DNA from: Thiohalobacter sp.
GTDB lineage: Bacteria; Pseudomonadota; Gammaproteobacteria; Thiohalobacterales; Thiohalobacteraceae
Length of the DNA stretch: 27,323 nucleotides
Direction of reading: 5' to 3'
NCBI GenBank assembly: GCA_027030825.1
Contig: JALVEM010000263.1
Location: 1-27,323 of the forward strand
Below the pieces are notes generated by a model. It saw only the letters and a program-made list of their open reading frames with translations, searched no databases and had not been told where the DNA came from. Each line of letters opens with the position of its first letter. Position 1 is the stretch's first letter. Below, piece after piece: positions 2-27,001 of this stretch. The translations under genes and the position numbers were made by a program.

Positions 2-1255
2 CGCCAAGGCAGCTACAGTGAATTCACATACTGGGATCTTCCTGCACTACTGAACGAGAGTCCCACACGAGCGGACGTCGATGCACTGAGCAGTGAACTC
101 GTCGATTCGGTTTCAGGCATTGCAGAACGATACGATGATCCCCTGTTCGATCTCACGGGAGGCTTCGACTCGAGAGCCATTGTGGGCGCCGCCATGCGCA
201 GCGGCATGAAATGCATCCATACCGATGTCACAGGCCCTCCGACCAGCAGGGATGTCTCGATCGCCAATCTCGTCGCGAAAACCTTCGGCTTCGATCATCG
301 AACACTGCCTGGCGGCTTCGATGACTTCGATGCCTGGTTCACCACTGCATCCGATGCCCTGACATTCACAGACGGTGAATACGACATCATGGAATATGCA
401 AACGTCATGCGGGTGCATCGCCAGATGGCACCGCTCTTCTCGTGCAGCGTGAACGGCTCTGCAGGGGAAGCATATCGTGGGTACTGGTGGGAACTGCTCC
501 TCCCCTTGCCGACCCGCCGGGGCGGATTCGACGCCAGAAGGCTGGCCAGCGCCCGCTTCATTACCACGGATATCGCATGCGACCTCGTACCCGACCGCGA
601 TCATGCAGCGATGGTCGATCACTTCGCGAACGTCATCGAGCGCACCATCGCCCCCCTGGGTGAAGCGAGACAGACCGCCTGCATGGACTACATCTACCTG
701 GTCATGCGAATGCAGCGATGGCAGGGCAGAATAGCCAGCTCGACCATGAGAATCTGGAACTGTTTCTCCCCCCTGGCATTCAGGCCGTTGCTGGAGCTCG
801 GCATCACGGTCCGTTTCATGGACAAGGTGAACAATCGTCTCATGCGTCGGTTGATCCTCAACCTGGACCGGGATCTGGCCCGCCTGCCGCTTTCCGGCGG
901 CTATCCGGCCACCCCGCTCGATTTCAGGACGTTGCCGCTCTACCTGCCCATGATCACCGAGTTCTCCAAACGGCTCGGCAGGCGCATGGCAAGAAAACTC
1001 TCTGCCTCCCCCTACGAGCCGCCTGCACACCTGAGCACCGACGTCAAGGATGTATTCGTGAATGAAAGAAGCAAAAGCCTTCTGACGCCGGAATCCATGG
1101 CCAGCAGCCGCCTGCTCGACGAACACGGGCTCGTCAGGTTCCTTGAGCATGCACGCAACGAACCGGCACGCTACAGAAGGCATATTGGACGGCTCATCAC
1201 CCTGGAACTGTTGGTCAGAAAGATCGATACCATCCGCCCAGTCCTCTCCGCCTGA
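2..1255 (+). CDS. Asparagine synthetase-like (AsnB C-terminal, ATP pyrophosphatase) protein, 5'-truncated by the window edge
   Basis: The frame is open from base 2 (RQGSYSEFTYWDLP...), upstream of the tracked start at 182. It has a PP-loop-like motif DLTGGFDSR at 149-175 (cf. SGGLDS), the SGSAGE-like stretch NGSAGEAYRGYWW and a C-terminal SPLAFRPLLE. Stop TGA at 1253-1255. Confidence 0.8.
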   Translation, partial: RQGSYSEFTYWDLPALLNESPTRADVDALSSELVDSVSGIAERYDDPLFDLTGGFDSRAIVGAAMRSGMKCIHTDVTGPPTSRDVSIANLVAKTFGFDHRTLPGGFDDFDAWFTTASDALTFTDGEYDIMEYANVMRVHRQMAPLFSCSVNGSAGEAYRGYWWELLLPLPTRRGGFDARRLASARFITTDIACDLVPDRDHAAMVDHFANVIERTIAPLGEARQTACMDYIYLVMRMQRWQGRIASSTMRIWNCFSPLAFRPLLELGITVRFMDKVNNRLMRRLILNLDRDLARLPLSGGYPATPLDFRTLPLYLPMITEFSKRLGRRMARKLSASPYEPPAHLSTDVKDVFVNERSKSLLTPESMASSRLLDEHGLVRFLEHARNEPARYRRHIGRLITLELLVRKIDTIRPVLSA

Positions 1256-1258
1256 CCA

Positions 1259-1435
1259 TCAGCCGGCTCGCTTGCCCAGTCTGCCGATCAGAAGAACGCC
1301 CACGATGACGAACAACGTCGCCGGCAGGATGAGATAGGCAATCGGCGCGTGCACGACCCGCCATGAGTAATCGAACACGAACAGACACAGGGTAAGAAAC
1401 AATACCAGCAGAACAATTCGCCAGGATCTCGTCAT
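1259..1435 (-). CDS. Small two-TM membrane protein, 58 aa (MTRSWRIVLLVLFLTLCLFVFDYSWRVVHAPIAYLILPATLFVIVGVLLIGRLGKRAG)
   Basis: Translated by hand; it is below the ORF-track cut-off. Its ATG (1435-1433) overlaps the psd-like TGA (ATGA coupling), and it fills the gap to the convergent gene almost exactly (3 bp left). Two hydrophobic helices with basic ends. Confidence 0.75.
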   Translation of the reverse strand: MTRSWRIVLLVLFLTLCLFVFDYSWRVVHAPIAYLILPATLFVIVGVLLIGRLGKRAG

Positions 1436-2166
1436 TGCACGTTCACCGCCTGTCCACCCTGCTCTTCCCGATCAGGCGCTTCCGCCATGATGGTCTCTCC
1501 CGCAATGACACGTTCACCGACTCGCGCAGTCATCGGGATTCGCTCGTTCACTTCCAGAACCACCGTACTCCCCAAAAGAATTCTCCCCAGCCTTTGTCCC
1601 TTGACGACATGATCACCCACCTTGCTCCATACCTCGATCCTTCTCGCAAGATAACTCGTGATCAGGCGCACGCACACATCGTCCCAGACGTCCGTTTCAT
1701 AACAGATGCGCTTCTGGACCGGCGCATGCTTTTCTCTCAGAAATACGAGATTCCTTCCCTCGCCATCCATCAGCTTGTCACCAAGTGAGCTGATCTCGGT
1801 CACCACACCACTGACAGGATGGCGTTGAACATGGACATCCCAGAAGGTCAGTGCAATGACGACGTAACGAACGCCGTCCTTGACCGTGATATCGATCACC
1901 CTTCCGTCGGCGGGCGAAACCATGTTTTCGCCTTCGGGAATGCTGCGCTCCGGATCCCGATAGAAAAACGACAGAAACTCGGGATCGATGTTCCCCGACA
2001 TCACCCATTCACGCACCTGCTCGGTGGGCCAACGATGAAATGGATCGAGGAACGGCTTGATCAGCGCCGAGGGATAGGGAAAGTTTCTCGCCCAATCGAT
2101 CATGGCGAACATACAGGCAGCAACGATCACAGCCTGCAGAAGGCGCTCTATCGATTTTCTATTCAT
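1432..2166 (-). CDS. psd: Phosphatidylserine decarboxylase family (pyruvoyl-dependent) proenzyme, short type
   Basis: N-terminal TM helix, FFYRDPER, SPADG (Asp 1906-1908), DVHVQRHP (His 1831-1833) and self-cleavage motif LLG|STVV (Ser 1567-1569), which would give a 45-aa alpha chain. Confidence 0.88.
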   Translation of the reverse strand: MNRKSIERLLQAVIVAACMFAMIDWARNFPYPSALIKPFLDPFHRWPTEQVREWVMSGNIDPEFLSFFYRDPERSIPEGENMVSPADGRVIDITVKDGVRYVVIALTFWDVHVQRHPVSGVVTEISSLGDKLMDGEGRNLVFLREKHAPVQKRICYETDVWDDVCVRLITSYLARRIEVWSKVGDHVVKGQRLGRILLGSTVVLEVNERIPMTARVGERVIAGETIMAEAPDREEQGGQAVNVQ

Positions 2167-2205: not shown

Positions 2206-3543
2206 TCATCGATAGTAGCCACCACCACCGGACCCCTTCCCGTAGGGCGATTCGTGCGCCTGCACCATACCGGAACCGGCAGCTGCCCTCGCCTCACTGT
2301 CCTCGGTCACTTCCTGGTGCTGAATCATCCATTCAAGAATGACCACGATCGCAATGAGATGATAGAGAAGATCGAAATAGGCCAGGCCGATGAATGCGCC
2401 GCCCACAAGGTATCCTACCATGGATGCCTGGACCATTGCCGCAAGATCCCTCGCCCAGTACATGTGTTCGTGTTCCCTGGTGGCCCTCACCACCCTGGAT
2501 GCCGTCCTGAACGACAGGAAGATCAATGCGAGGAACAGCGCCAGACCGACGAAACCATGCTCGCCGAGCACCTCGAAATAGATGCTGTGCGAGTCGTGAT
2601 AATTCTCGGGCTCGGGTGCATATATCTGGAACACCTCCGGCTGGAACACTTCGAACCCGCCCCCGACGATCGGACGATCCAGAGCGAGATTGAAGGCAAA
2701 ACGCCAGGCGTTGATCCTTCCCATCGCCGAGCCATCCTGCTCGTAGGTCTTGATGGTCCCCATGCGCTGCATCCATGCATCTGGCATGAAATTGATGATG
2801 AGCGGTATTGCGATCGAGAATGCCAACAGAAGCGGCAATCGATTCCTGGACTTCAGGATGGTGAACAGAAGCATGGCCGAACCGGCGAGGAAGGCGCCAC
2901 GTGAATAGGTGCTCACGATTGCGATCAGGCAAAGTATCATGATGGCGCCCATGCCCCAGCGGAGCAGTCGCCGGTTCAATGACAGCTGAAGATAGCGTAG
3001 CAGGGGAAATATCACACAAAGCGCAAATGCGATCTCGTTGTTTCCGGAGATGAAGCTGCCAGATGGCCCAAGAACCCTGTGGGCGCCTCCTGTACGCAGG
3101 GCGAACAGCCCTCCCTTGATGCCATAGAACGCGATCGACATCGCAATCACCCAGACCAGGAGCTCCAGGCGCCGCCTGTCCTTCATCAGCATCAGTGTCA
3201 CGAAAATCATGACCTGGATCTTCAGCACCTTCTCCATCTGCCTGAGCGCCGCATCAGGGTAGATGGCGAAAAGTGTCGTGAAACAGGTCCACAGAATGAA
3301 CAGAACCAGCACGACAGTGACCGGCGTCCATGGAATGTCCTTCCGTTCCTTCGAGAAGAACATGGAGACGAGCGTGATGCCGGCGACGAGCTGTACGAAG
3401 GGGAAACTGTAGGCGAATCCGTATGCCAGCCGGTGCGGATTCATGTAGCCGATCCACGACCAGACGAGCAGCCCCACATGAGGCCGCATGATCATGTAGG
3501 GAATCAGGCCGAATATGACCAGCGATACCGCTATGTCACGCAT
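2206..3543 (-). CDS. Putative O-glycosylation ligase, exosortase A-associated (TIGR03097-like, O-antigen ligase/Wzy_C family)
   Basis: Characteristic N-terminus MRD...RPHVGLLVWSWIGYMNPHRL; multi-TM; TYSRGAFL, RPIVGGGF and HSIYFEVLGEHGFVGL motifs. Confidence 0.88.
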   Translation of the reverse strand: MRDIAVSLVIFGLIPYMIMRPHVGLLVWSWIGYMNPHRLAYGFAYSFPFVQLVAGITLVSMFFSKERKDIPWTPVTVVLVLFILWTCFTTLFAIYPDAALRQMEKVLKIQVMIFVTLMLMKDRRRLELLVWVIAMSIAFYGIKGGLFALRTGGAHRVLGPSGSFISGNNEIAFALCVIFPLLRYLQLSLNRRLLRWGMGAIMILCLIAIVSTYSRGAFLAGSAMLLFTILKSRNRLPLLLAFSIAIPLIINFMPDAWMQRMGTIKTYEQDGSAMGRINAWRFAFNLALDRPIVGGGFEVFQPEVFQIYAPEPENYHDSHSIYFEVLGEHGFVGLALFLALIFLSFRTASRVVRATREHEHMYWARDLAAMVQASMVGYLVGGAFIGLAYFDLLYHLIAIVVILEWMIQHQEVTEDSEARAAAGSGMVQAHESPYGKGSGGGGYYR

Positions 3544-3549: not shown

Positions 3550-4704
3550 TCAACCCGTCCTGGAATCTGCCGTTCGATCGACCGGAAAGCCGTTTTCCAG
3601 CATGAGCGAATCCATGAAGAACTTGGCCGCCCAGTTCGGCACCCGCCAGCGCATGTACTCGCCATAGACGGGGTAAGACCCCTGGATGCCGCCACGCAAT
3701 CCATCGTCGGCGTCATCGAGGGATTGCACGCTCATGTTGTAGGCATTTGCCTCCCTGGCCGCTTTCGCCAGCCTTGCATTGCCGGCCACCTCGTCGATTC
3801 TCTGCCAGTTGAGCGCCATCTGCGAATTTCCAGTCAGGCAGCTCCACCTGGCTGCCGGCTGCCACTCCGAATCCAGGCGGCCCGGCAGGGCGCCATCCCG
3901 GCGCTGCGCAGCCGCCACATTCTCCGCAGCAAGAACAGCGAGATCGATGAAATCGTCCCTGTCGGCGGCGACGCCGACTTCGAGAATGCCCCTGACCGCA
4001 TAGGCGATGGTGTGCGTCAGCGGCCTTGAATTGTCCGTCAGGCAGTTGTCCGGCATCCAGCCGTTCCCGTGAGCACGGCGCGCGACCCAGTCGACATTCT
4101 TCACGGCAGCATCCAGCCATTCCTGTCTTCCGAGCACCTCCCATGCCCTGACCAGCCCGAAAGCGACACGCGTGTTGTAGGTATTCACTTCGTGGCTTGC
4201 GAAGGGCGAGGCATGCCTTCGCCAGGCCCCGTCGTCATCCTGTACTTTCACCAGCCAGTCGGATGCCTTCGTCAGGGAATCCGCAAATACCGGATCCCGG
4301 GTTTCCTCATAGGCCCTGGCCCAGCCGAAAAGCACCTGTCCCGTATTGAATATGGTCGGCGCCTTGATATCGGCATCCATCGTGCCTGCAAGCACGCCAC
4401 CCTCATCGAGCTGAATTTCGGATTCCCACCGGGCCATGCGTTCGGCACGTTCGGCGAACTCCCGGTTTCCAGAATAGGCGGCGTAGTCGTACAGGGTCGT
4501 GATGATGTACCCCGTGGTCTCTGGATAGGAAGCCGACCACTCGCCGGCCTTGATGTCATAGCTCGCGGACACGCCATCGTCTGCCGTGGCATCCTGCGCC
4601 CGAGCCAGCCATTCCGCAGCAGCCGCCAGATGCGTATCGGGATCACGCGGCTTTCGACGTCCGATATCCAGTCCTTCAGCCAATGCCTTGATGATTCTTC
4701 TCAT
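3550..4704 (-). CDS. Uncharacterised (alpha/alpha)-toroid protein (prenyltransferase/squalene-cyclase-like repeats) of polysaccharide loci
   Basis: Motifs SYPETTGYII, FNTGQVLFGW, WLVKVQDDDGAW (QW-repeat-like), LTHTIAY, CLTG and PNWAAKFFMD. No signal peptide. ATGA overlap with the upstream gene. Confidence 0.7.
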   Translation of the reverse strand: MRRIIKALAEGLDIGRRKPRDPDTHLAAAAEWLARAQDATADDGVSASYDIKAGEWSASYPETTGYIITTLYDYAAYSGNREFAERAERMARWESEIQLDEGGVLAGTMDADIKAPTIFNTGQVLFGWARAYEETRDPVFADSLTKASDWLVKVQDDDGAWRRHASPFASHEVNTYNTRVAFGLVRAWEVLGRQEWLDAAVKNVDWVARRAHGNGWMPDNCLTDNSRPLTHTIAYAVRGILEVGVAADRDDFIDLAVLAAENVAAAQRRDGALPGRLDSEWQPAARWSCLTGNSQMALNWQRIDEVAGNARLAKAAREANAYNMSVQSLDDADDGLRGGIQGSYPVYGEYMRWRVPNWAAKFFMDSLMLENGFPVDRTADSRTG

Positions 4705-5906
4705 GCCTGTCCCGCCACGTTTCCGATTCTGATTCTCCCCAGCCTTTTGGTCAGTCGCCTGTACCCTTCATACAGCCCAGGAAGCGGGTCGCTCCATCGC
4801 CATACGGAATCCACTCCGCTTCCGGGTGATACATGACACTGCCTGCCCTGCCTTTCTGCTGACCACCTGGGCATGTGCCTGTCGCGCCAGATTCTGACTC
4901 TTCGCGTCCTCTTCTGTTCGGGTATCTCGCCCTTGACCAGATCGGCGTACATCGCCCACGGAAGATTCACACCGTTGAGTGCTGCCACTTCTTCCTGATA
5001 ATCGGTTCTGCCGATGGTGGGCTCGATCATGTAGAATCTGCCATTGACTGCATGCCGCTTGAATTCCATGCTGCCCATGCCGACAAGGCCGATTGCAGCC
5101 ACGAATCTCTCCGTTTCGCTTCGAACGGCCTCGATCACATCGCCATCGAGCTCGGGCATGCAACTTGCCGTTCCACCGGTTCCGGGCGGCCATGAATACA
5201 GCTTCCTGCCGACGAACGCGGCGTCCATGTGCCCCGGCCGGCTGCAGTAGAACAGGCAGAAACGAATCTCCTCGTCCCCTCCAGGCACCCATTCCTGCAC
5301 AACCACTTCGTCGACATGAGGGAACACCTCTTCGAAGACCCTGGCGAGCTCTTCCCGATCGTGCACGAAATAGGCCTTTCTGCAATGCCTGGCATAGGCA
5401 TCGTTCTTCACCGACGGCTTGACGATGCAGGGGAATTCCACCGCAGACACGTCCTCGTATGTACTCCTGTCGACTGTCCAGGTTCCCGGCACCAGAAACC
5501 CGTGCTTCTTCGCCAGCGCGTCGAATCCGGATTTCGACGTGAGCCTCTCCAGCAACTGTCCGTCCGGCAGTTTGTATCGGCAGCAGGAGGCAAGATCCTT
5601 ATGGTGGCGCACCAGCGTTTCAACCGTGCGTTCCTCCGTCGGAAACAGTACCGGCCTTTCCCTCGCCCTGTCGGACAACTGCTGGATCTGCTTCACGAGA
5701 CTCCGACCTGAAAGCGATTCCACCCGACGGAAACGGGCATGCCGGGTCAGACGATAGGGCGAATCCGACCGGTCGTGCAGCGCCAGCACCGGCACGCGCC
5801 TGCGGGACAGGCTCCTGGCCACACCCAGACCATTGATGTCGAGACCAATGACGATGGCTACGGGCTGCCTGCTCTTTTCGAGTAACGATTCGGTAACCAT
5901 CTGCAC
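4701..5906 (-). CDS. ATP-grasp carboxylate-amine ligase (D-aspartate ligase-like)
   Basis: N-terminal GLDINGLGVARSL; ATP-grasp motifs CIVKPS, VVQEWVPG and MEFKR...FYMIEPTIGR. Start is GTG 5906 or ATG 5900, with an in-frame stop shortly upstream. Confidence 0.85.
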   Translation of the reverse strand: MQMVTESLLEKSRQPVAIVIGLDINGLGVARSLSRRRVPVLALHDRSDSPYRLTRHARFRRVESLSGRSLVKQIQQLSDRARERPVLFPTEERTVETLVRHHKDLASCCRYKLPDGQLLERLTSKSGFDALAKKHGFLVPGTWTVDRSTYEDVSAVEFPCIVKPSVKNDAYARHCRKAYFVHDREELARVFEEVFPHVDEVVVQEWVPGGDEEIRFCLFYCSRPGHMDAAFVGRKLYSWPPGTGGTASCMPELDGDVIEAVRSETERFVAAIGLVGMGSMEFKRHAVNGRFYMIEPTIGRTDYQEEVAALNGVNLPWAMYADLVKGEIPEQKRTRRVRIWRDRHMPRWSAERQGRQCHVSPGSGVDSVWRWSDPLPGLYEGYRRLTKRLGRIRIGNVAGQA

Positions 5907-5982: not shown

Positions 5983-7476
5983 TCAGAATGCAACTACGGC
6001 GCTCACGAACACCATGTTCATGCTGTAATCGGTGGTGGCGGCACCGCTTCTCTTCTCGTAGATGTAACCCAGAGAAGAATCGACGTTCTTCATGAATCGA
6101 TGCCGGGCCATGAGGGAGGCCCGTCTGAACCGACTGTCCAGACCAGTGCTCGCACTCCTGCTGGCGACATCCAATCTCAGCTCGGCATTCGTATAGGGAC
6201 GAATCCTTCTCGTCGCCTTCAATACATAACCAGTGAACTCGTCCTTCGATGCATCCTTCTGGAACTCGCGACGGGCGTCGTAGAGGCGCAGTGAGAGGCT
6301 GGTCCTGGCCCCTTCGTAGAAAAGCGTGCCTTCCAGCCGCTTGCCGAGATAGGTCGTCACCGAGAATGACGGCAGGACATAGTCCGAGAGAGAGAGGACA
6401 TCACCTGTTTCCTCGCCCCCGAGCGCCTGCAGGCTGCCTTGAACCCTCTCGGTATCCAGGCGGGTGAGCAATTGCGTTACCGTGGTCAATTCCTCCGCGT
6501 ATTTTGCGCTGAAACCGAAATGTGCTCCACGATGAAAAATCTCGAAGCGTCTGCTGTTGCCAAAGTACCTTCTTCCAAAGGCCACATCCACCATGGTAAA
6601 GGCCCCGGGTCGCCAGACCGCGCCCAGGAACCACAGACTTCCTTCCGGTGCCTTCACGCCGGGCGCCACCTCGAACCGGTTCTTCTCCCGCCCACCCTGG
6701 GCGTAGAACTGATATTTGATGGTTGGCGCATAGCGGAGATCCAGCAATGCCCGCTCGAATGTCGAGTCGGACAGGATCTCGCGCTTGACCTCGTTTCTTC
6801 GATAGGTGACTTTCCATGTCAAATCCTGCCCAGCCGATGGATTGTTGCCGACATCGAGAAACCACTGTTCCTGTGTGCGGTCCTGAAGCCCTCCCTTCTT
6901 GAACGCAACCTTTCTGAAATTTGCACCGGCGCGTACCGCGAGATCTCTTCCGAACTCGTGACGCATATAGGGCGACAGGGCCAGTGACCAGACATCCGAG
7001 CGGTTGTCGGTCACCGGAATGTTGTCATATCCGACCCTGCCGTCGGGTGTGATGGAATGCTGCGTATAGAACGCATCCCCGTCCAGATACAGCCATTGCT
7101 CGACGAGCTCCGACTGCGCCGCGGCCTCCAGCTTGTGGTAAAGCTCGTTGCGCGAGCTGTCCCTGGCATAGAAGAGCCCTTCCATCCTGTAATCGGCAAC
7201 AGCCGAGAATCTCCTGGTGCGATCGGTCAGGCTGACTCCAGGTATGATCGCCGTCACGAATTCGGATTCCGGATTCACCTCGGTCAGCGTGATGTTGTCG
7301 GTCCAGGTTCCGGAGAGGGCGACGGTGGGCAGGATCGTCATTCCGGCACGCTGGCTTGCACCGGTATCGTCGGCGGTTTCGGCCGCAAGATTGCCGGACA
7401 TGAGCAGGAATATCAGGGACCAGCGCAGATCGAGTCCATTTCGGGCAGACATGCGGTTCTTCCGGATCAGCAGCAT
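5983..7476 (-). CDS. PEP-CTERM system-associated outer-membrane beta-barrel protein (TIGR03016-like)
   Basis: Signal peptide; PTVALSGTWTDNI...SEFVTAIIPG N-terminus; alternating beta-strands; C-terminal Phe (VSAVVAF); GGAGG RBS upstream of 7476. Confidence 0.82.
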   Translation of the reverse strand: MLLIRKNRMSARNGLDLRWSLIFLLMSGNLAAETADDTGASQRAGMTILPTVALSGTWTDNITLTEVNPESEFVTAIIPGVSLTDRTRRFSAVADYRMEGLFYARDSSRNELYHKLEAAAQSELVEQWLYLDGDAFYTQHSITPDGRVGYDNIPVTDNRSDVWSLALSPYMRHEFGRDLAVRAGANFRKVAFKKGGLQDRTQEQWFLDVGNNPSAGQDLTWKVTYRRNEVKREILSDSTFERALLDLRYAPTIKYQFYAQGGREKNRFEVAPGVKAPEGSLWFLGAVWRPGAFTMVDVAFGRRYFGNSRRFEIFHRGAHFGFSAKYAEELTTVTQLLTRLDTERVQGSLQALGGEETGDVLSLSDYVLPSFSVTTYLGKRLEGTLFYEGARTSLSLRLYDARREFQKDASKDEFTGYVLKATRRIRPYTNAELRLDVASRSASTGLDSRFRRASLMARHRFMKNVDSSLGYIYEKRSGAATTDYSMNMVFVSAVVAF

Positions 7477-7492: not shown

Positions 7493-8959
7493 TCAACGGC
7501 TGCGCAGTTTCCTTCCCTGAACGGGGTACACGAGTGACAGCAGCTCGATCGATGCCTGACGATTCACCATCAGACTGACCAAAGGATAAGCCAGCATACC
7601 GGACAACACCAACAGCAGGAACCGTGCCATCACCTCCACTTGCTGCCCGAAAAGCATCCTCTCCGCGACAATCGCAACATACATGACAATTCCTGACATT
7701 AACGAGGGGGCCACCGCAGCAGCGAACTCGCCGATACCTATGCCGATCAGGGGGATCGAACGCATCAACATGACTGCAAACGCCAGCGGGTATGCAATGC
7801 ACCAGGCGACGACCACGCCCGTCAGCCCCCATCTCGTTCCGACAAGCACGGCCGACGGCACGATGATGCAGGCCAGCGAAAGATTGACGACATTGACATC
7901 CGGCCTGCCGACCGCCTTCACGGCCGTGGGGACATTGGCGCCCAGCATCTTCAGTGGCATGACCAGTGCCAGCAGCTGAATCGGCAGAACCACCTCTTGC
8001 CACTTGGCACCGAGCAACACGCTCACAGCCTCCGGTGCAACGGCCGATATGCCAAAGAACACGGGAACGGCAAAAACGGATATCAGACGCGTTGCCTTGA
8101 GAAAGGCGCTTCTGAAGCGTTCGCGATCATCCTGCAATGCGGAGAATGCCGGCAGACTCACCTGCGTCATGATCGCATTGAGCTTCTGCGAGGGGAGTGC
8201 TGCAAGCTGTCTGGCCACGGAATACAGTCCAAGTATCTCGTTGCCCAGTATGCGTCCTATGATGAAGATGTCCGATTCGGTATAGAGGTACCACAAGAGG
8301 CGTTCCAGCGTCACCCAGCCCCCGAACTTCGCGATTCCGAGGACACGCCCAAGTCGCGGGGTCGGGACCCTCAAATAGGGATACAGCAGATTGAGACCGA
8401 GCATGCGAACGAACATGCGCAGCAGATTTCCGTAGACGAGCGACCAGACCCCCTTCCCTACGAGCGCCAGATAGAGCGTGAACAGGCTGCCGACAATCGT
8501 CGATACCAGCTCGACAATCGCTCTGCGATTGAATTCCATACGCTTCTCGAGCATGGACTGGGGCACGATGGAAAGCGCCAGGAGAAAGAACTGCAACCCT
8601 ATCACGCGAACCACATCGATCAACCGTGGTTCACCGAAAAAGGACGCCAGCGGGATCGCAGCATGGTAGAGAACCACATAAAGCAGACCGTTGACGACGA
8701 GCGCCAGCGTATAGGCCTCTCGAACCAGCCCCTGATCGAGATCGCGTTTCTGGATCAGGGCGGCCCCCATGCCCATCTCGGCAAGCAGGTTGAGGAAGGT
8801 GATCACGGCCATCGCCATGGCCATCAATCCGTAATCCTCCGGCGCCAGCAGGCGTATGACGACGATCGTGATCACCCAGCTCGCGAGCTGGGACAACAGG
8901 CGGGCAGCCGCCATCCACTTCAGGGCGCTGACCACGCGCTGTCCCAGGCGATCATGCAT
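7493..8959 (-). CDS. wzx: Wzx/PST-family polysaccharide flippase
   Basis: VIRLLAPEDYGLMAMA, EMGMGAALIQ and GNEILGLYSVA motifs; about 12-14 hydrophobic segments. Start moved to ATG 8959 (MHDRLGQ...), which overlaps the upstream stop by 8 bp. Confidence 0.9.
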   Translation of the reverse strand: MHDRLGQRVVSALKWMAAARLLSQLASWVITIVVIRLLAPEDYGLMAMAMAVITFLNLLAEMGMGAALIQKRDLDQGLVREAYTLALVVNGLLYVVLYHAAIPLASFFGEPRLIDVVRVIGLQFFLLALSIVPQSMLEKRMEFNRRAIVELVSTIVGSLFTLYLALVGKGVWSLVYGNLLRMFVRMLGLNLLYPYLRVPTPRLGRVLGIAKFGGWVTLERLLWYLYTESDIFIIGRILGNEILGLYSVARQLAALPSQKLNAIMTQVSLPAFSALQDDRERFRSAFLKATRLISVFAVPVFFGISAVAPEAVSVLLGAKWQEVVLPIQLLALVMPLKMLGANVPTAVKAVGRPDVNVVNLSLACIIVPSAVLVGTRWGLTGVVVAWCIAYPLAFAVMLMRSIPLIGIGIGEFAAAVAPSLMSGIVMYVAIVAERMLFGQQVEVMARFLLLVLSGMLAYPLVSLMVNRQASIELLSLVYPVQGRKLRSR

Positions 8960-10112
8960 GGCCCGCCTCCAGGCAGCGGCCTGCAATTTCCGTCACCCGT
9001 CTTGCATTCTCGACCCAGTCGAAGCCCGCATCCGCCAGACGCGCCCTGGCACCTCTGCCGAGCCTTTCGCGAAGGGCGTCATCCTCGCAGAGTCTGGCCA
9101 GCCCCTTGCCGAAGTCCTCGGACGAATCCGCATCGAAAAGAAGCGCCTCGGACTCGTGCCTCACGATCTCGCGTATGTTTCTCCTGTCAGGCGCAAGGAT
9201 CGCGCAGCCAGCGGCCATGTATTCGAAGATCTTGAGTGGCGAAGCATACTCGACGACGTCCGGCTGCAATGCAACATCGAAGGCACACACATAGCGCCTC
9301 ACATCTTCATGATCGACATAACCCGTGATGGTGAACCTCTCGCTCAGACCCAGACGCTTCGCACGCTGCTCGAGGCTCGACCTGACGGGGCCGTCACCCA
9401 CCAGAAGCAGATGCACGTCCCGTCTCGTCTCCTCCCGTGCCATGTAATCCAGCACTCTTTCCATCCCGTGCCACTCGCGGACAAAACCCGAGAAGCCGAG
9501 CACAAGAGCATTCTCCAGACCCAGCGCTCGCTTGGCCTCGATGCGGGATGGCGCCTGCTCCCAGTCGGATCGGCATATGCCATTGTGGATGACCGTCATC
9601 CGCTCTTGCGGCACACCAGTATCGGCAATGATTTCGGAAAGGACCCGTGTCACTGGAAAGAGATGCGTCGCATTCTTCCAGGAGAATCGTTCCGTCCATC
9701 TCGCAAGCGGCCTGCATGCCAGGCCGTCATAGCGACTGCGCTCCATGAACAGTGGCGCATTGACTTCGAGCAACAGGGGCAGCCTGGTCAGCCTCGCCGC
9801 CAGAACCCCGGCGATGAAGTTCAGGTTGTAGCGCTCATAGACGACATCGGGAGAATGTCTCCGAATAGCCCCCAATATCCGGAACAGGGCCGGAAGGTTG
9901 TAGCCGAACTCGAGCAGTTCATAGATGAACGAAGGCACGTGCCGTTTCAGCCAGTCGACAGCACCTGCCACCCCGCCATATTCCTCTTCCATGATCTCCG
10001 GCCCCACGATCACGACCTCGTGTCCCAGGGAACGGAGCGCCCGGATGAGCTCGCTCATGTGAACGTACTGCCCGTCCTTGGATGCGATCCTGTGATGAAA
10101 AAGAATCTTCAT
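8952..10112 (-). CDS. Glycosyltransferase family 4 (GT-B)
   Basis: GFSGFVREWHG, LLLVGDGP and YASPLKIFEYMAAGCAI (E-x7-E-like region); ATGA overlap with the upstream GT4. Confidence 0.92.
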   Translation of the reverse strand: MKILFHHRIASKDGQYVHMSELIRALRSLGHEVVIVGPEIMEEEYGGVAGAVDWLKRHVPSFIYELLEFGYNLPALFRILGAIRRHSPDVVYERYNLNFIAGVLAARLTRLPLLLEVNAPLFMERSRYDGLACRPLARWTERFSWKNATHLFPVTRVLSEIIADTGVPQERMTVIHNGICRSDWEQAPSRIEAKRALGLENALVLGFSGFVREWHGMERVLDYMAREETRRDVHLLLVGDGPVRSSLEQRAKRLGLSERFTITGYVDHEDVRRYVCAFDVALQPDVVEYASPLKIFEYMAAGCAILAPDRRNIREIVRHESEALLFDADSSEDFGKGLARLCEDDALRERLGRGARARLADAGFDWVENARRVTEIAGRCLEAGHA

Positions 10113-11314
10113 CTGCCCGCCAGCTCCGAAAATATCGTCAGCATCCCGCTGGTGGTTTCATCCCAGGAAAACCTTTCTGCATACCTGCGCGTCGCATCGC
10201 TCGATGGCATGTTTGCAAGAAGCCTCCTGATACCGCCGGCAAGTGCCTCCGGTGTCCGATCATCCACCAGCACACCGGCCTCGGGCGAGGCCACCACTTC
10301 CGGAACACCCCAGATGCTCGTGGCGACCACGGGAACGCCACAGGCCATGGATTCGAGCAGAACGTTCGGCCACCCCTCCCTGTCGGAGGCGAGAACCAGA
10401 ACATCCGCAGCCGAGTAATATTCGGCAAGCTCCCGATGAGGCACCTCTCCAGCAAAGACCACCCTGTCGGCAACCTGCAGATCGGCTGCATGCGCCTCGA
10501 GGCGCCTTCGCTCCGGTCCGTCGCCCACGATCAGAAGCTGCACATCGGGCTCGAGCCGTGCAAGTGCACCGATGACCAGATCATGCCCCTTTCTCCGGAT
10601 CAGATGCCCCACACTGATCAGTACCCTGCCATCCAGACCGAACCTCTCCCTGATCCGGCGTCCGTCGACCGGGCGAAACATTTCCAGATCGACACCGTTT
10701 CTCAGAACGTGGATTTTCTCGTCATCGATCCCGAGGCCGATCATTTCGTCCTTCAGCGCCCTGCAGACCGTGATCATCGCCGATGCCCTTCGGGCCGCCC
10801 ATCGTATCCAGGCCCTCGGTACCCTGTATCGCGGAATCAGATTGATGTCCGTTCCCCGGGCCGTGATCACGAGCGGTATCGACAGCCAGCCCGAGAGCAG
10901 GGCGGCCGCCACGCCGTCCGGGTAGAAGTAATGTGCATCGAGTACATCGACACCTCCCATCTCGTCGATGGCGCTTCTGACGGGTCCCAGGGTGGCCATC
11001 GCCATGAGCAACGGTGTCATGCTCATGCCAACCTTCGGAATCACCGGATACCGTGGATGGAGAATGCGTATCCCATGACGGGACTCCTCGTGGCAGACAC
11101 CGGCAAACTCGGCATAGCTCCCGAACCAGTCCGATCTGAACGGAAACCATGGAACCGGCGCGACCACCTGGATCCGGACCCGCCCTGTCCGGAGTGCATG
11201 CCTGAGCCGGTTCTCGACGAATACCCCATGCCGTGTCTGAATATCATTGGGATACAGAGTCGTGTACGTGAGCACTCGCAGCGGCCTGTCGCCACCTTTC
11301 TCCACGTTCACCAT
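10109..11314 (-). CDS. Glycosyltransferase family 4 (TuaC-like)
   Basis: LDAHYFYPDGVAA, VITARGTDIN, LISVGHLIRRKG and SDREGWPNVLLESMACGVPVV motifs. Confidence 0.92.
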   Translation of the reverse strand: MVNVEKGGDRPLRVLTYTTLYPNDIQTRHGVFVENRLRHALRTGRVRIQVVAPVPWFPFRSDWFGSYAEFAGVCHEESRHGIRILHPRYPVIPKVGMSMTPLLMAMATLGPVRSAIDEMGGVDVLDAHYFYPDGVAAALLSGWLSIPLVITARGTDINLIPRYRVPRAWIRWAARRASAMITVCRALKDEMIGLGIDDEKIHVLRNGVDLEMFRPVDGRRIRERFGLDGRVLISVGHLIRRKGHDLVIGALARLEPDVQLLIVGDGPERRRLEAHAADLQVADRVVFAGEVPHRELAEYYSAADVLVLASDREGWPNVLLESMACGVPVVATSIWGVPEVVASPEAGVLVDDRTPEALAGGIRRLLANMPSSDATRRYAERFSWDETTSGMLTIFSELAGR

Positions 11315-12333
11315 CTGTCTCCGTATATCCTGCCCATGTGACTCCGCATCACCACATCATGAATCTGCCGTATCGTGTCCTCGTCCAGCTCGGTGCGCCA
11401 CTTGTTGGCGGATTCGCGAGGATTCTTGTAGATGCTGTAATACTTGTCGTTCTTCCTGCGCCCCGTCTGCAGGATGAATTCCTCGGTCTGGGAATGCCAT
11501 TCCAGATCACAGAATTCGAACAGCTCCCTCATCCGGTCCACCGGCTCGTCACAGATGTCCTCGTATCTGACCAGTCGATAGCCTGCCCTCTCCCGACAGC
11601 CCCTGAAGGCCTGCTCGTTGTAGAGCAACCACTTCCACGCCAGCCTCTGGACCGGCGTGGATTCCCTGAGCGTTTCCATGTCGACACCCAGACCCCTGGC
11701 CGTCTCCGAATCGACTATCTTCTCGAACAGTCCGTAATCCTCGCTGGACGGGGTCCGATCCCGGAAACGCCCCCGGGACTCCCCTCTGAGAACGGATGCG
11801 ATGAAACCACAGGGATGCCTGACGATGTGCACGCCGCGCGCACTTCCGACCGCATCGAGAAACAGAGGCAGTCTGCCCAGAGACTCGATCGACTTCCACA
11901 CCAGCCGCGCTCCGCTTCCGACAGGGTCACCCTCGGGAATGCGCGTGATATGCACGTTCGTCAGCTTCTCCGCAAGAAGCGCCGACATGATCGCCAGTCT
12001 GTACAGTCCCTGGCTCATGGGCGATCGCCACTGCTTGTTGAATATCGGCCTCTTGCCGCAGATCGAAGTGTTGCACGTGGCGGGAAGCCGTTCGATGTAT
12101 TCACGCGCCAGTCTGACCTGCTCCGTATCCCCGGCATCGGCGAAGGTCGGAATGCCCGTGATCCGATGCCAGCTGTCCGGCTCGTGTCGATACAGGACGC
12201 CGGGATGACTGTCGAACAGCTTGCCTATCCAGGTCGTGCCCGACCTGGGCAGCCCGAATGCCAGAATCGGCCTGTCGAGACCGTACCCGACAGAATCAGA
12301 CACCATGGTTACCGCCTCGACAGCCTCGTCCAT
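11308..12333 (-). CDS. PAPS-dependent sulfotransferase
   Basis: 5'-PSB loop GLPRSGTTW followed by SHP...YRHEPD; 3'-PB-like IVRHPCGFIAS; VRYEDICDEP. Confidence 0.9.
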   Translation of the reverse strand: MDEAVEAVTMVSDSVGYGLDRPILAFGLPRSGTTWIGKLFDSHPGVLYRHEPDSWHRITGIPTFADAGDTEQVRLAREYIERLPATCNTSICGKRPIFNKQWRSPMSQGLYRLAIMSALLAEKLTNVHITRIPEGDPVGSGARLVWKSIESLGRLPLFLDAVGSARGVHIVRHPCGFIASVLRGESRGRFRDRTPSSEDYGLFEKIVDSETARGLGVDMETLRESTPVQRLAWKWLLYNEQAFRGCRERAGYRLVRYEDICDEPVDRMRELFEFCDLEWHSQTEEFILQTGRRKNDKYYSIYKNPRESANKWRTELDEDTIRQIHDVVMRSHMGRIYGDRW

Positions 12334-12407: not shown

Positions 12408-13400
12408 CTATGCGAACACCTCGATGACGGAACGGGATGCAACCAGCACCGCCAACGAAGTGAAAAGTGCCCACAGAACTTCATTACGTGATGCTCCGAT
12501 ACCCACCCTGAACGATGCATTATCCGCACCAAACCGTCCCCTGTCCGACCACCAGGCACCGGCAACGGCGAGCAGAAGGATGATGACGACATAGAGCTGC
12601 CATCCATAGAGCACGTGATCCGCATAGGCAGACGATGCCAGCCCCCTCTCCTGAGCAAGAAGCATGATGCCGGTCACCCTGACGATATTGACGACAAGTG
12701 CCATGACCATGGCGACCGCCACGAACAACAGCCTTTTCGTAACGGTCCCGTAATAGACCCAGGCCATCGCCAGCATGATCACGGCCATGGCGATGAGGAA
12801 CCTGTATCCAGAGCAGGCTTCGGCAACCTCGAAATCCGCCACGGGCAGGCTGAGCAGTGTCCCGTCCCTGAACACGGGCACATTCAGGAGCTGCAGCATG
12901 GCTTCCGCACCCTGTGCGGTGATTGTCTGCAGGAAGGGCACGAGCCACTTGCCGTCGACGGGCACCGCCAGAAACATGTAGCCGATCGGGAAGATCATGC
13001 GTCTCGACACATCCTGACCGAAGAGAGCCAGCACGGAAAACGGGATGATCGAGACGACGCCGGCGTGCATGAATATGTTGAGATCCCACAGCCGGCCGAG
13101 TGCCCATACGGTCACCGCCAGCAGCAGCCCCAAGATCCCCCAGGCACTGGGCTTGAGCACCGCCCCGTCCAGTTTTCCTCTGGACAGGAACGCCAGCCAA
13201 AGGGCGATGGGCATGACCAGAAATCCATGCCGGTATTCCCCGGTCCTGTTCCAGGTCTGAATGAGAGAGCGGAAGGCGTCGGCATAGACGACGAATGCAG
13301 TCACGAGCAGGATGGCCCATGATGCGATACAGAGCCCGGCGGTGAATCGACCGTCAGAGGAATGCCCTGCCTGTTCCAGGTTCTGTATTCCTCGCACCAT
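12408..13400 (-). CDS. xrtA: Exosortase A (EpsH family) with no fused EpsI domain
   Basis: W..TGEYRHGFLVMPI and FLAVPV motifs; catalytic-type residues VAEACSG (Cys 12813-12815), NIVR (Arg) and DHVLYGW (His); multi-TM; stops at TAG after 330 aa. Confidence 0.88.
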   Translation of the reverse strand: MVRGIQNLEQAGHSSDGRFTAGLCIASWAILLVTAFVVYADAFRSLIQTWNRTGEYRHGFLVMPIALWLAFLSRGKLDGAVLKPSAWGILGLLLAVTVWALGRLWDLNIFMHAGVVSIIPFSVLALFGQDVSRRMIFPIGYMFLAVPVDGKWLVPFLQTITAQGAEAMLQLLNVPVFRDGTLLSLPVADFEVAEACSGYRFLIAMAVIMLAMAWVYYGTVTKRLLFVAVAMVMALVVNIVRVTGIMLLAQERGLASSAYADHVLYGWQLYVVIILLLAVAGAWWSDRGRFGADNASFRVGIGASRNEVLWALFTSLAVLVASRSVIEVFA

Positions 13401-13490: not shown

Positions 13491-14300
13491 TCAGTAGGTT
13501 CCCTTGGCCTGCCAGATATTCTTGTTGAGCACCATTCCGATGGCCTTGTCCCTTTCCAGATATCCCAGCGCCTCCTGAATATCCTGCCGTGTCGTCTTTC
13601 CGGCCTCGACGACGACCGTGATCTGTCCGGCATGCTGTGCCAGCACCTTCGCCTGGCTCGATGCCAGCAGCGAAGTGGCATCGATGACGACGATGCGATC
13701 GTGATAGCGCTGGGAGAGCTCCGCGATGAGCCTGCGCATCCTGCCGCTCGTCAGGAGCTCGGTGCTCCTCGGGTTCCTTGCCTGTCCGGCCGGCAGGATC
13801 CTCAGACCCTCGACATTCGTCTTGACGATCACGTCTCGCAGGTCCTTGTCCTCTTCGGAGAGCACATCGAGCAGCCCCTCGTGATTCTCCAGACCGAATA
13901 CCCGTGACAACCCACGGTTTCTGATGTTTCCGTCGATCAGGAGAACGGTCGTGTCCAGCTCCATCGCGATGCTCATTGCAAGATTCACGGCCACGAAGGT
14001 CTTGCCCTCTCCCTCGAGCGCACTGGTCACCAGAACCACATTGGCATTGGGCAGATCGAGGCGTTCGTTTCTGCCGAGCGCCAGCTTGAGAATCGGCAGC
14101 TTCAGCATCCGGAATTCTTCCATGAGCTGCGCCGAGGCATGCTCCGGTGTCAGAAATCCGCGCTTGTGCAGCTTGTCGAGGTCGATCTCGTGAAATTCCG
14201 AGCCTTGACTCACATTCCCTGCCTCGCCCCCCGTTTCGGAATGTGAATCCGGCAGATGCTCGAACAGTTCCACCGCCTTTTCTATCGTGTTATCCGTCAT
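13491..14300 (-). CDS. XrtA-associated tyrosine autokinase-like protein (TIGR03018-like, cytoplasmic half of a split Wzc)
   Basis: EEFRMLKLP, Walker A SALEGEGKT, VNLAMSIAMELDTTVLLID and VVEAGKTT motifs. GAGAGGA RBS favours ATG 14300 over 14315. Confidence 0.88.
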   Translation of the reverse strand: MTDNTIEKAVELFEHLPDSHSETGGEAGNVSQGSEFHEIDLDKLHKRGFLTPEHASAQLMEEFRMLKLPILKLALGRNERLDLPNANVVLVTSALEGEGKTFVAVNLAMSIAMELDTTVLLIDGNIRNRGLSRVFGLENHEGLLDVLSEEDKDLRDVIVKTNVEGLRILPAGQARNPRSTELLTSGRMRRLIAELSQRYHDRIVVIDATSLLASSQAKVLAQHAGQITVVVEAGKTTRQDIQEALGYLERDKAIGMVLNKNIWQAKGTY

Positions 14301-14334
14301 GGCATGTCCTCTCACGCGTACAGACGCCGATCCG

Positions 14335-15912
14335 TCACCCTGTGAGCATCATTCTTATCATCGTCACCAGCTCGAGAAACTTCTCCCGAGCACCACTGGT
14401 GAGCACCATGCTGTACATTGCCAGCAGCCCGCCCAGCGCCATGACCAGACCGGTCTTGTTCACGGACTGGATGTAGATGCTGCCGTCCTTCTCGATCGTG
14501 GAGATGCTGGCCAGTACAGGATGGCCCGATACCCGACCGAGCATGACCTTGTCATGGATGCGGGGGCGAATCTGGGTCAGCACGATGCCAACGAACATTC
14601 CCATGCCGATGGAGACGACCAGCACTGCCGTATTCAACAGTGTTCGCGGAGGCCATGTGGGAATCGAGGACACGATCGGCGGCTCGATGACCTTGAACTT
14701 GACCGTGTCACCGGACTTGTCGACGTTTTCGGAGATTCTCGCCGATTCCCGCCGCTCCACCAGCTCCTCGTAGTTTCTCTTGTTGATGTTGTAGTCGCGA
14801 TTGAGCCGCTTGTATTCCGTTTCGATCTGCGGCGAAAGCTTGGCGAGCTCCTCGAGCTTGCCGACACGCGCCCTGAATTCATCGACCCTCGCCCTCAAGG
14901 CGGCCACATTCGCATTGGCCTCGCTGAGCGATAACGCAAGCTCGGGCGGCAGATTGGCGCTCGTTTCCTCGGGTTCTCGCTCCATGAGCTCGGCCAGCTT
15001 CTCGAGTTCCTTCATGCGCTTGGCCTCGAGCTCGGCGATCATGTTTCTGAGCGTCTTGATTTCGGGATGCTCGTCCGTGTAGATGAGCGACAGATCGGCC
15101 AGCTGCTGTCGCAGCGCTTCCAGCCTGTCATCCACCGAGGTCCGGATCATGCCGGCCCCGCTGGCCACGGATGCCGCCGAGGAGGCTTTCTTGAAATCCC
15201 TCAACTGCTGCCTGATGGCGTTTCTGCGCAGCATGGCCTCCTTGAGCTCCAGTTCTGCCTGGCGCAGCTCCTTGCGCGTTTCCTCGAGCTTCTTGAAGAA
15301 GTCCCCGCCTTCCAGTATGTGAAGGTATTTCCTCCTGAACGCCGTCAGCCTGTCCTCGGCCTCCCTGAGCCGTCTCTCGTATTCCTCGATCTGGTTCTGC
15401 AGAAATTCCTTGGCGGAGTCCGTATCCTTGCGCGTATCACCGAGCATGGTCTCGATGAAGATGTCCAGCAGCACCTGCACCACGGCTCGCGCCTTCTCCG
15501 GATTTCCGTGCATGTAGGAAATCTCGTAGAGATTCTGCTGCTTGGAAAACTTGAGCTTGATGTCCTTGCCCAGTGCCCCGATCAGCCTGTCGAACTGTTC
15601 CGGCGCCAGGTCGCTGCTGTAGAGCCCCGACTTGATGGCGATCGCCTCCAGGTTGGGACGGCTCAGCAGCGCCTTGGTCATCAGCTGAATACGCTGATCG
15701 ATGTCCGTCTGGACCGCGAGCCCCTTGAGGAGAGGCCTCAACATGGATTCGGTGTCCACGTAGATCTTGGCGGTGGCCGTATACTTGTCCGGCAGCAACG
15801 CGACGCTGGCCCAGCCGATAACCGCCGTCAGCCAGGTCACCATCACGATCTGCCAGCGGTAGATCCACAGGGCACGCGCCTGGGAGTAGATCTGCTCGAA
15901 TATGTTCTGCAT
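14335..15912 (-). CDS. XrtA-system polysaccharide chain-length determinant (TIGR03007-like; Wzz / Wzc membrane half)
   Basis: N-terminal TM + LPDKYTATAKIYVDTESMLRPLLKGLAV; long coiled coil; YTDEHPEI; FKVIEPP...P followed by C-terminal TMs. Confidence 0.9.
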   Translation of the reverse strand: MQNIFEQIYSQARALWIYRWQIVMVTWLTAVIGWASVALLPDKYTATAKIYVDTESMLRPLLKGLAVQTDIDQRIQLMTKALLSRPNLEAIAIKSGLYSSDLAPEQFDRLIGALGKDIKLKFSKQQNLYEISYMHGNPEKARAVVQVLLDIFIETMLGDTRKDTDSAKEFLQNQIEEYERRLREAEDRLTAFRRKYLHILEGGDFFKKLEETRKELRQAELELKEAMLRRNAIRQQLRDFKKASSAASVASGAGMIRTSVDDRLEALRQQLADLSLIYTDEHPEIKTLRNMIAELEAKRMKELEKLAELMEREPEETSANLPPELALSLSEANANVAALRARVDEFRARVGKLEELAKLSPQIETEYKRLNRDYNINKRNYEELVERRESARISENVDKSGDTVKFKVIEPPIVSSIPTWPPRTLLNTAVLVVSIGMGMFVGIVLTQIRPRIHDKVMLGRVSGHPVLASISTIEKDGSIYIQSVNKTGLVMALGGLLAMYSMVLTSGAREKFLELVTMIRMMLTG

Positions 15913-15986: not shown

Positions 15987-16631
15987 CTAGAACACGCTCT
16001 CGGGTATGACCACGATGTCGCCGGGCATCAGCTTGATGTTCTGCGAAACATCGCCCTCGTTGAGGAGATCGTCGAGTCTGACCCTGATCTCCACGTCCTT
16101 GCCGTCCACCTTCCTGATCACCTTGGTGCGATTGCCGGCGGCAAACTCGGACAGACCACCGGCCAGAATCACCGCATCCAGTATGGTGATGTTCTCGCGA
16201 TACGGAATGGCCTGCGGCTGGACCGCCTGGCCCACGATGCGTATCTGCTGGTCATATCGACCAACGAACCCGGTAACTGTAACAGTCACGATGGGATGCT
16301 TGACATACTTGGCGAGGCGCTGCTCCAGTTCCCGGGCGAGCTCGGTGGGTGTCTTGCCGCTCGCCTTGAGATCCTCGACCAGAGGCGTCGTGATGCGCCC
16401 GTCCGGACGAACCGGCACGGTGACATTCAGGTCCTTGTTGTTCCACACGAAAATCTGCAGGCTGTCGCCCGGACCGATCCGATACTCCGGCGCCTCCGTT
16501 TCCGAAACGGACGCTGTCGGCACCGACGGCGTCCTGCCGGCAGTGCTGCAGCCTGCAAGCCAGACCGCCGACAGAACCACTGTCATGAAATGACGGAAAC
16601 GGGCGACATGCGCTGATTTGCGGATTTTCAA
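15987..16631 (-). CDS. wza: Polysaccharide export lipoprotein, XrtA/PEP-CTERM system (TIGR03027-like, OPX/Wza family)
   Basis: Lipobox LAGC; EYRIGPGDSLQIFVW, VRPDGRITTPL, SLBB domain and PGDIVVIPES. Probable TTG start at 16631 behind a GAGGAG RBS (the track's 16673 has none). Confidence 0.92.
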   Translation of the reverse strand: MKIRKSAHVARFRHFMTVVLSAVWLAGCSTAGRTPSVPTASVSETEAPEYRIGPGDSLQIFVWNNKDLNVTVPVRPDGRITTPLVEDLKASGKTPTELARELEQRLAKYVKHPIVTVTVTGFVGRYDQQIRIVGQAVQPQAIPYRENITILDAVILAGGLSEFAAGNRTKVIRKVDGKDVEIRVRLDDLLNEGDVSQNIKLMPGDIVVIPESVF

Positions 16632-16700
16632 CTTGTTCTCTCCTCGGAAATGAAGTGGAAACGGCTTTTCCATGACCTCGGCGGAAAATGCATGACGGGG

Positions 16701-17129: not shown

Positions 17130-17212
17130 TATTATCAGGCACAGAATCCGGCATTTCATTGGCTGAAATCGATAACCAGAAGGCCCGGACCCGGGCCGAG
17201 GAGTGGATGAAG

Positions 17213-23229: not shown

Positions 23230-26982
<3,753 letters not shown>

Positions 26983-27001
26983 AGCCGTCGGGCGATTCAC
27001 G

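Follow-up and report, generated by a model that had tools for sequence, protein, structure and literature searches.

A divergent phosphatidylserine decarboxylase-family gene and its small membrane partner in exosortase A exopolysaccharide loci

Exosortase systems occur widely among environmental and floc-forming bacteria but, to our knowledge, their polysaccharide chemistry and the acceptor of their sorted proteins are both still to be established; a search of the literature likewise gave no paper establishing the exosortase acceptor. A stretch of 27,323 nucleotides from Thiohalobacter sp. (GenBank assembly GCA_027030825.1, contig JALVEM010000263.1; hereafter, the window) raises the question of why an exosortase A (XrtA)/PEP-CTERM exopolysaccharide (EPS) locus should carry a gene of the phosphatidylserine decarboxylase (PSD) family. 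Pfam and NCBIfam scans showed that the window is one long minus-strand locus of this type. The original prediction, made from the window, was that the enzyme may generate the ethanolamine lipid onto which PEP-CTERM proteins, and perhaps the nearby GlyGly-CTERM protein, are transferred or, alternatively, that it decarboxylates a serine unit on the glycan. We introduce here the names psdL, for the decarboxylase gene, and psdS, for its small partner:

1432-2166, minus strand: psdL, divergent PSD-family pyruvoyl-decarboxylase proenzyme of 244 residues (PF02666)
1259-1435, minus strand: psdS, two-helix membrane protein of 58 residues, read from the sequence

Our reading, which we regard as an even call, is that psdL and psdS are an accessory EPS-tailoring unit in one flavour of XrtA/PEP-CTERM locus, working with an amide-forming ATP-grasp ligase.

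The expectation of an intact Psd-type proenzyme with Asp, His and Gly-Ser motifs held when the protein was compared with Pfam. PsdL is a PSD family member with conserved catalytic residues: it matched PF02666 (PS_Dcarbxylase) with an E value of 5.6e-29 and 101.7 bits (cut-off 22) over profile positions 3-197 of 198, and it contains the motifs PADG (Asp87) and FWDVH (Asp110 and His112) and the cleavage site LGST (residues 198-201). The equivalent residues in E. coli PSD are D90 and D142-H144-S254 (PMC7952604). D87, D110, H112 and LGST were invariant in 120 of 120 psdL homologs, indicating that the catalytic apparatus is intact and under purifying selection. Public records annotate these homologs as 'phosphatidylserine decarboxylase', and the window protein scored below the cut-offs of all 12 NCBIfam PSD equivalog models, the best being NF003685 with 127.8 bits versus 183; the same was true of the Rhodanobacter ortholog. 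Against NF038088, the model for the archaetidylserine decarboxylase of protein sorting systems, it reached 84.1 bits (cut-off 240). Moreover, two invariant elements peculiar to psdL members, an N-terminal segment (FPYPSPLI...RWP..Q.R.W) and an insert (GD.LMDGEG....FLREK..PVQK), are absent from ordinary small Psds.

An AlphaFold2 (AF2) model of the protein had a predicted local distance difference test (pLDDT) score of 84.9, and a fold search of the PDB with this model gave only two matches with a probability of 1.00, E. coli PSD and the tryptophan decarboxylase PsiD, both with a TM-score of about 0.4. The kinship with E. coli PSD was recovered by the fold search only, as no PDB sequence was matched at E ≤ 0.01 by a profile built from the clade alignment. 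A comparison of the E. coli PSD phosphate-binding residues (Y137 and S166) with psdL was dropped, since the alignment was not confident at 15% identity. The protein has one N-terminal transmembrane helix, followed by a mean of 4.2 Lys/Arg residues and preceded by 0.36, and 101 of 107 homologs had more of these residues after the helix than before it. By the positive-inside rule, the catalytic domain most likely lies on the cytoplasmic face of the membrane, and the topology of natural fusion proteins, described below, agrees with this placement. A periplasmic catalytic domain was considered because of the charged N-terminus of the window protein, and was rejected in view of the 101 of 107 homologs and the fusions.

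Next, we analyzed the sequence that follows psdL. The start of psdS overlaps the stop of psdL by 4 nt (ATGA), so that both genes are translationally coupled, and psdL does not close the operon as originally proposed. A pattern search of species-representative genomes yielded 66 psdL loci, 64 of which contained, directly after psdL, an open reading frame (ORF) of 41-88 residues with the conserved D..WR motif that psdS carries in its loop; most had the same 4-nt overlap. The typical product is 58-70 residues long, with two helices, and no matching Pfam family was found. In three natural fusions (P0128, P0298 and P0299), the small protein is joined to the N-terminus of psdL. Collectively, the partner ORF and the fusions show that psdL and psdS are a conserved two-gene module. 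The positive charges of psdS fall in the inter-helix loop in gammaproteobacterial versions and at the termini in the alphaproteobacterial and window versions (for example, L017:10678-10881 versus L067:10687-10911). Two possible remnants of psdL were also observed: at L076:10001-10480 the frame stops early and has no recognisable partner ORF, and at G416:C2:45420-45635 a PSD fragment of 72 codons contains an in-frame TGA. This fragment lies 20 kb from xrtA, and another contig of the same genome holds an intact psdL copy.

In a maximum-likelihood tree, psdL members formed a clade with 100% support in the SH-aLRT test, far from the housekeeping Psd of the window genome, in line with the original description of psdL as a paralog. 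The clade is small, as an exhaustive search of 1.8 billion cluster representatives gave only 18 clusters, at 50% identity, with E ≤ 1e-30 to psdL, and no ortholog was found in a control sample of 400 genomes drawn at random from the phylum. The carriers belong to Rhodanobacteraceae, Salinisphaera, Acidihalobacter, Kordiimonadaceae/Emcibacteraceae and Rhizomicrobium, and also include other alphaproteobacterial metagenome-assembled genomes (MAGs), one Planctomycetota MAG and the lineage of the window itself. Sister clades, 35-40% identical, likewise have a psd-like gene with an ORF of 63-65 residues within polysaccharide loci. Among the sister contexts tried (P0148, P0133 and P0137), two were on contigs of 1.1 and 1.5 kb; the informative ones were P0137, P0280 and P0288. 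One sister locus contained a deacetylase, a flippase and fragments of family 4 glycosyltransferase (GT4) genes, another contained family 2 glycosyltransferase (GT2) genes, sulfotransferases and a flippase, and in a third a PEP-CTERM-like protein was encoded 3 kb downstream. Literature searches gave no report of a bacterial Psd paralog being tied to exosortase, and the 2006 founding paper on PEP-CTERM/EpsH makes no mention of a decarboxylase or of phosphatidylserine (PS). The psdL clade and its partner ORF are new as a distinct group, as no curated family, paper or annotation was found that distinguishes either.

To place psdL relative to the phospholipid pathway, PSD-family and PS synthase genes were counted. 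The window genome (2.5 Mb in 574 contigs, 93.6% complete) has exactly two PF02666 matches. The second, at 1127-1750 of contig C13, sits between ilvC and a pssA of the CDP-alcohol type (TIGR00473, 115.8 bits), forming the housekeeping pair. No CDP-alcohol-type pssA was found on the window contig and the three PF01066 matches of the genome are all on other contigs, in agreement with the earlier remark that psdL has no pssA neighbour in the window. Similarly, 49 of 50 psdL genomes have a canonical Psd elsewhere, scoring 145-212 bits, while psdL itself scores 77-106 bits. The exception is G447 (locus L058), a complete alphaproteobacterial chromosome of 2.6 Mb, in which psdL lies 28 kb from xrtA and is the only Psd. 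Neither type of PssA was found in this chromosome (TIGR00473, with a cut-off of 107 bits, scored 30 bits at best, and there was no match to the E. coli-type model), and hence it has no known source of PS. This organism may be wholly without a PS/phosphatidylethanolamine (PE) pathway. Several observations therefore argue that PS is not the dedicated substrate of psdL.

The association with exosortase was then quantified. The original prediction had placed the decarboxylase directly after the O-glycosylation ligase in the xrtA run, and psdL indeed starts 39 nt downstream of the TIGR03097 gene, on the same strand as xrtA; the linkage of its homologs to exosortase/EPS loci also proved to be recurrent. 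An XrtA-type exosortase was found in 63 of 66 psdL genomes (57 above the curated cut-off) versus 47 of the 400 sampled genomes. In two of the three psdL genomes without a match, MAGs labelled Pseudomonas and Acidobacteriaceae, the gene is on contigs of 1.7 and 3.9 kb; the third is a MAG of 2.4 Mb. Both genes are verifiably on one contig in 30 genomes, always 17-45 kb apart; in the window the distance is 10 kb. However close the association at the level of the locus, psdL never adjoins xrtA or pssA. Within 10 kb of psdL, the 66 loci contained PrsT in 30 cases, PrsR in 29, PrsK in 28, a flippase in 32 and TIGR03097 in 14. In five individual loci (one each from Rhodanobacter and Kordiimonadaceae, one on a TARA contig and two on other metagenomic contigs) the neighbours were PrsK/PrsR/PrsT, GT4, flippase, TIGR03097 ligase or AsnB-like genes, and sulfotransferase genes are also neighbours of psdL in XrtA superclusters. 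The reverse association was not observed: none of the 47 XrtA genomes of the phylum sample has a psdL ortholog, the best other matches being 37% identical, which indicates that psdL is not a general requirement of exosortase. It is a rare accessory and not a core exosortase component.

The two commonest large neighbours of psdL in loci other than that of the window are lyase-like paralogs of 939 and 766 residues (L006:943-3762 and L006:4250-6550) with a weak match to the PcRGLX-like N-terminal RIFT-barrel domain. In 34 of the 66 loci, spread over four lineages, each has a copy no more than 10 kb from psdL. Both are possible EPS lyases or hydrolases, and they are uninformative on the chemistry of psdL.

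A candidate partner enzyme of psdL is encoded by the gene at 4701-5906. Its 401-residue product gave marginal Pfam matches and an NCBIfam match below cut-off to a carbamoyl-phosphate-synthase-like family (E 1.1e-8), but its AF2 model (pLDDT 86.1) clearly has an ATP-grasp ligase fold, with PurK, PurT, biotin carboxylase, RizA and Ddl as the top Foldseek matches (E 1e-17 to 1e-15, TM-score about 0.6). Homologs were found in 51 of 53 psdL genomes versus 7 of 47 XrtA genomes without psdL, and wherever the three genes share a contig the ATP-grasp gene is between xrtA and psdL. The opposite pattern was obtained with the carrier-protein/pyridoxal phosphate (PLP)-decarboxylase module of classical XrtA loci. 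The PLP decarboxylase TIGR03099 scored above cut-off in none of 54 psdL genomes versus 24 of 47 XrtA genomes without psdL, and these 24 are among the 29 sampled genomes whose XrtA exceeds the curated cut-off. The TIGR03098 ligase was also absent from the 54 psdL genomes, and was detected, beside TIGR03099, in five of five positive controls. Fisher tests on these associations gave p values of about 1e-10 to 1e-43, which overstate the evidence because the genomes are related; the pattern is nonetheless seen in about six families from two proteobacterial classes. At least two kinds of XrtA locus can thus be told apart, one with the carrier-protein/PLP-decarboxylase module and a rarer one with psdL/psdS and the ATP-grasp ligase. 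The remaining genes of the window were as follows, assigned by the Pfam and NCBIfam scans unless indicated otherwise:

2-1255, plus strand: divergent asparagine-synthase-like gene (PP-loop, TGGFDS), 5'-truncated and convergent (Pfam Asn_synthase, E 0.0011; NF033561, E 3.5e-4)
2206-3543, minus strand: TIGR03097 putative O-glycosylation ligase, exosortase A system-associated (Wzy_C/DUF5935; NCBIfam 521.9 bits, cut-off 188, with Pfam matches)
3550-4704, minus strand: (alpha/alpha)6-toroid-like protein of 384 residues (weak Pfam matches to SQHop_cyclase_C, GH127 and Pec_lyase)
4701-5906, minus strand: ATP-grasp carboxylate-amine ligase of 401 residues (from the AF2 model and Foldseek)
5983-7476: TIGR03016 outer-membrane protein
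7493-8986: Wzx-type flippase
8952-11314: GT4 glycosyltransferases, two genes
11308-12333: sulfotransferase
12408-13400, minus strand: XrtA, 330 residues (TIGR03109, 241.9 bits, cut-off 208)
13491-14315: tyrosine autokinase
14335-15912: chain-length determinant
15987-16673: XrtA-system exporter
17159-17983: PEP-CTERM protein, divergent from the rest of the locus
18086-20842: PrsT

The toroid-like protein is encoded between the ATP-grasp and ligase genes, and its Rhodanobacter ortholog is 59% identical, with the same gene order. The XrtA of the window is a short form of 330 residues without the EpsI extension; in the other genomes searched, the frame with the XrtA match was mostly about 480-660 residues long, consistent with the usual EpsI fusion.

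From these data, the following mechanism can be proposed, in which we infer what psdL acts on, how it sits in the membrane, how it is connected to the ligase and what is finally made. PsdL would process itself to a pyruvoyl decarboxylase, the predicted cut being between Gly199 and Ser200, and would be held in the membrane by its one N-terminal helix with the catalytic domain in the cytoplasm. It would then remove the alpha-carboxyl from a serine-type amino-acid head group, either side-chain-linked or phospho-linked, so that an ethanolamine-type primary amine is left. The ATP-grasp ligase would join this amine unit to the polysaccharide repeat unit through an amide bond, and either order, decarboxylation first or ligation first, fits the proposal. 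Free phosphoserine as the substrate would also account for the genome without PssA. In such a scheme, the psdL/psdS module would take the place of the carrier-protein/PLP-decarboxylase module of the classical loci. Of the two original suggestions, decarboxylation of a serine unit on the glycan is closer to what the tie to the ATP-grasp gene and the complementarity with the PLP module favour.

Several points weigh against this proposal. Neither a phosphatase gene nor one for uronic-acid synthesis was identified next to psdL, and the assignment of a substrate to psdL is wholly inferential. Small bacterial and archaeal PS/archaetidylserine decarboxylases remain the nearest relatives of PsdL in the NCBIfam comparisons, and a membrane anchor, which PsdL has, is what one would expect of a lipid enzyme. 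The topology of psdS is ambiguous and, judging from its charge distribution, may differ among lineages. The ATP-grasp gene was also present in 7 XrtA genomes without psdL, 5 of which carry the PLP-decarboxylase module. Finally, the carriers represent about 6-7 family-level lineages and are mostly Rhodanobacteraceae, so that the counts overstate independence, and the argument from G447 is that of one metagenome-derived chromosome.

The lipid route of the original prediction was considered next. If psdL were a true PS decarboxylase, it could provide a local pool of PE whose amine would be the exosortase A acceptor for PEP-CTERM proteins, as a counterpart of PssA/PssD and archaeosortase. Both precedents on which that prediction drew were accurately cited: the attachment of lipid to ArtA substrates in Haloferax requires both PssA and PssD (PMC7157517), while rhombosortase substrates in Vibrio carry a glycerophosphoethanolamine modification (PMC6219818). 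In Methanosarcina, the pssD gene is located beside artA (PMC7157517). Beyond the archaeal precedent, this explanation has in its favour the intact catalytic site of a PSD-family enzyme, the PEP-CTERM protein encoded at 17159-17983, the position of psdL inside XrtA loci and the high frequency of exosortase among its carriers (63/66 versus 47/400). Of the conditions set for refuting the original claim, none of those examined was found: psdL is a second copy, it stands apart from the housekeeping Psd of its genome, and its homologs are recurrently linked to XrtA/EPS loci. The proposed acceptor fared less well, since exosortase generally works without psdL (0/47), all carriers but one already own a canonical Psd, and the sole carrier lacking it also lacks PssA and hence any known source of PS. 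PsdL is like archaeal PssD in being a PSD-family gene tied to a sorting system of the exosortase/archaeosortase family, but it has no pssA partner, lies 10-45 kb from the sortase gene and is never adjacent to it, scores 84 bits against the 240 required by NF038088, is rare among XrtA systems and has its own small membrane partner. Furthermore, a PE anchor does not predict the association with the ATP-grasp gene or the exclusion of the PLP-decarboxylase module, and we consider it unlikely. It is very improbable, in turn, that psdL is a redundant or condition-specific Psd isozyme, serving PE upkeep during heavy EPS output or feeding phosphoethanolamine transfer, with no dedicated role in the product of the locus. 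Such an isozyme would fit the PSD family membership, the membrane anchor and the public annotation, and would leave without explanation the strictly conserved private partner ORF with its natural fusions, the invariant N-terminal segment and insert specific to the subfamily, the tight confinement to XrtA genomes and loci across several classes and the presence of psdL in a genome without PssA; in addition, the family scans found no sulfatase-type phosphoethanolamine transferase among the window genes.

A closer variant of the tailoring proposal differs from it solely in the substrate and the order of steps, and we hold this version to be doubtful but worth keeping in view. Here, the ATP-grasp enzyme would link the side chain of Asp, Glu or Ser to an amino sugar of the undecaprenyl-linked repeat, and psdL would then decarboxylate the free alpha end, giving a beta-alanyl-, gamma-aminobutyrate- or ethanolamine-like arm. 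PS is itself a side-chain-linked amino acid on a lipid carrier, and therefore a lipid-linked glycan bearing such a residue would be a small step in specificity. The membrane anchor of psdL and its membrane partner are consistent with this order, as are the polysaccharide deacetylase beside one sister-clade gene and the FemAB-like genes beside alphaproteobacterial psdL; against it, family scans found no deacetylase in the window or the Rhodanobacter locus. A bolder extension concerns the acceptor itself. Sortase uses the amine of lipid II as acceptor, and by analogy an amine made by a decarboxylase on the EPS or on a lipid-linked precursor might act as the nucleophile by which the acyl-enzyme of exosortase is resolved, so that PEP-CTERM proteins would be transpeptidated onto the polymer and psdL/psdS would be a membrane-bound route to this acceptor. 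The idea comes from the fact that nearly every XrtA locus has some decarboxylase module, either of the PLP type or, where this is absent, psdL; we think it improbable.

Returning to the tailoring unit as we propose it, psdL and psdS were compared with known systems. PsdL is like bacterial PSD (E. coli Psd, PDB 7CNW-7CNZ; NF003685 and TIGR00164) in Pfam family, LGST site, Asp/His/Ser residues, membrane association and best PDB fold match, and unlike it in scoring below all equivalog cut-offs, in its single transmembrane anchor with its own N-terminal segment and insert, in having an obligate small partner ORF, and in occurring as a second copy, in XrtA loci only and without a paired pssA. The TIGR03098/TIGR03099 module, like psdL/psdS, is a decarboxylase-containing accessory of XrtA EPS loci, and the two are mutually exclusive (0/54 versus 24/47); TIGR03099 has an unrelated fold and is PLP-dependent and carrier-protein-based, whereas psdL has a pyruvoyl cofactor and is membrane-bound. 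The two modules may be functionally equivalent. For the HS:2 capsule of C. jejuni, ethanolamine phosphate is formed from serine phosphate by the decarboxylase Cj1436 and is linked to glucuronic acid by Cj1438C, an ATP-dependent amidoligase (PMC12409886). This glucuronamide pathway, which also includes the phosphatase Cj1435, shares with the psdL locus the combination of a decarboxylase and an ATP-dependent amide ligase; the likeness is in logic alone, and no counterpart of the phosphatase was identified beside psdL. Cj1436 is a soluble, PLP-dependent enzyme. PsiD, the other fold match, is eukaryotic and shows that the PSD fold can act on a substrate other than PS. An arginine decarboxylase of Aspergillus is reportedly a further PSD-family member of this kind; arginine decarboxylase and agmatine in Aspergillus are the subject of a review (PMC12904898). 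Both enzymes are eukaryotic and soluble, and we know of no case in which either is embedded in a polysaccharide locus.

The pairing of psdL with a partner of about 65 residues gives a compact, easily recognised module, which is a signature of a separate flavour of XrtA locus, one from which the classical PLP-decarboxylase module is absent. In PsdL, the PSD family likely has a bacterial member that has taken on a new function, with a membrane subunit of its own. An idea that follows, and that can be tested, is that an amine derived from decarboxylation is a common requirement of XrtA systems; should the amine of whichever decarboxylase module is present be the exosortase acceptor on the polymer, this would be important if true. 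Because some carriers (Rhodanobacter, Salinisphaera and Acidihalobacter) are culturable, the question is open to bench work.

Other observations were made at the ends of the window. Rhodanobacter psdL is also flanked by divergent AsnB-like genes, but a specific link between AsnB and psdL was dropped, as the AsnB-like gene of the window had no detectable ortholog near other psdL genes (E ≤ 1e-8, at least 50% query coverage). At 23212-26982 on the plus strand, a protein of 1256 residues with a 'choice-of-anchor U' domain (56.6 bits, cut-off 32) and a GlyGly-CTERM-like tail is encoded, and the minus-strand ORF of 1123 residues at 23941-27312, which had no family matches, is probably a shadow ORF in GC-rich DNA, the real gene being that on the plus strand. 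A tandem pair of ArnC/GtrB-like GT2 genes was found at 20973-22948 (minus strand); as the listed 540-residue ORF of this pair matches the GT2 family only from residue 222, its translation probably begins further downstream, close to where the gene for the 316-residue protein ends.

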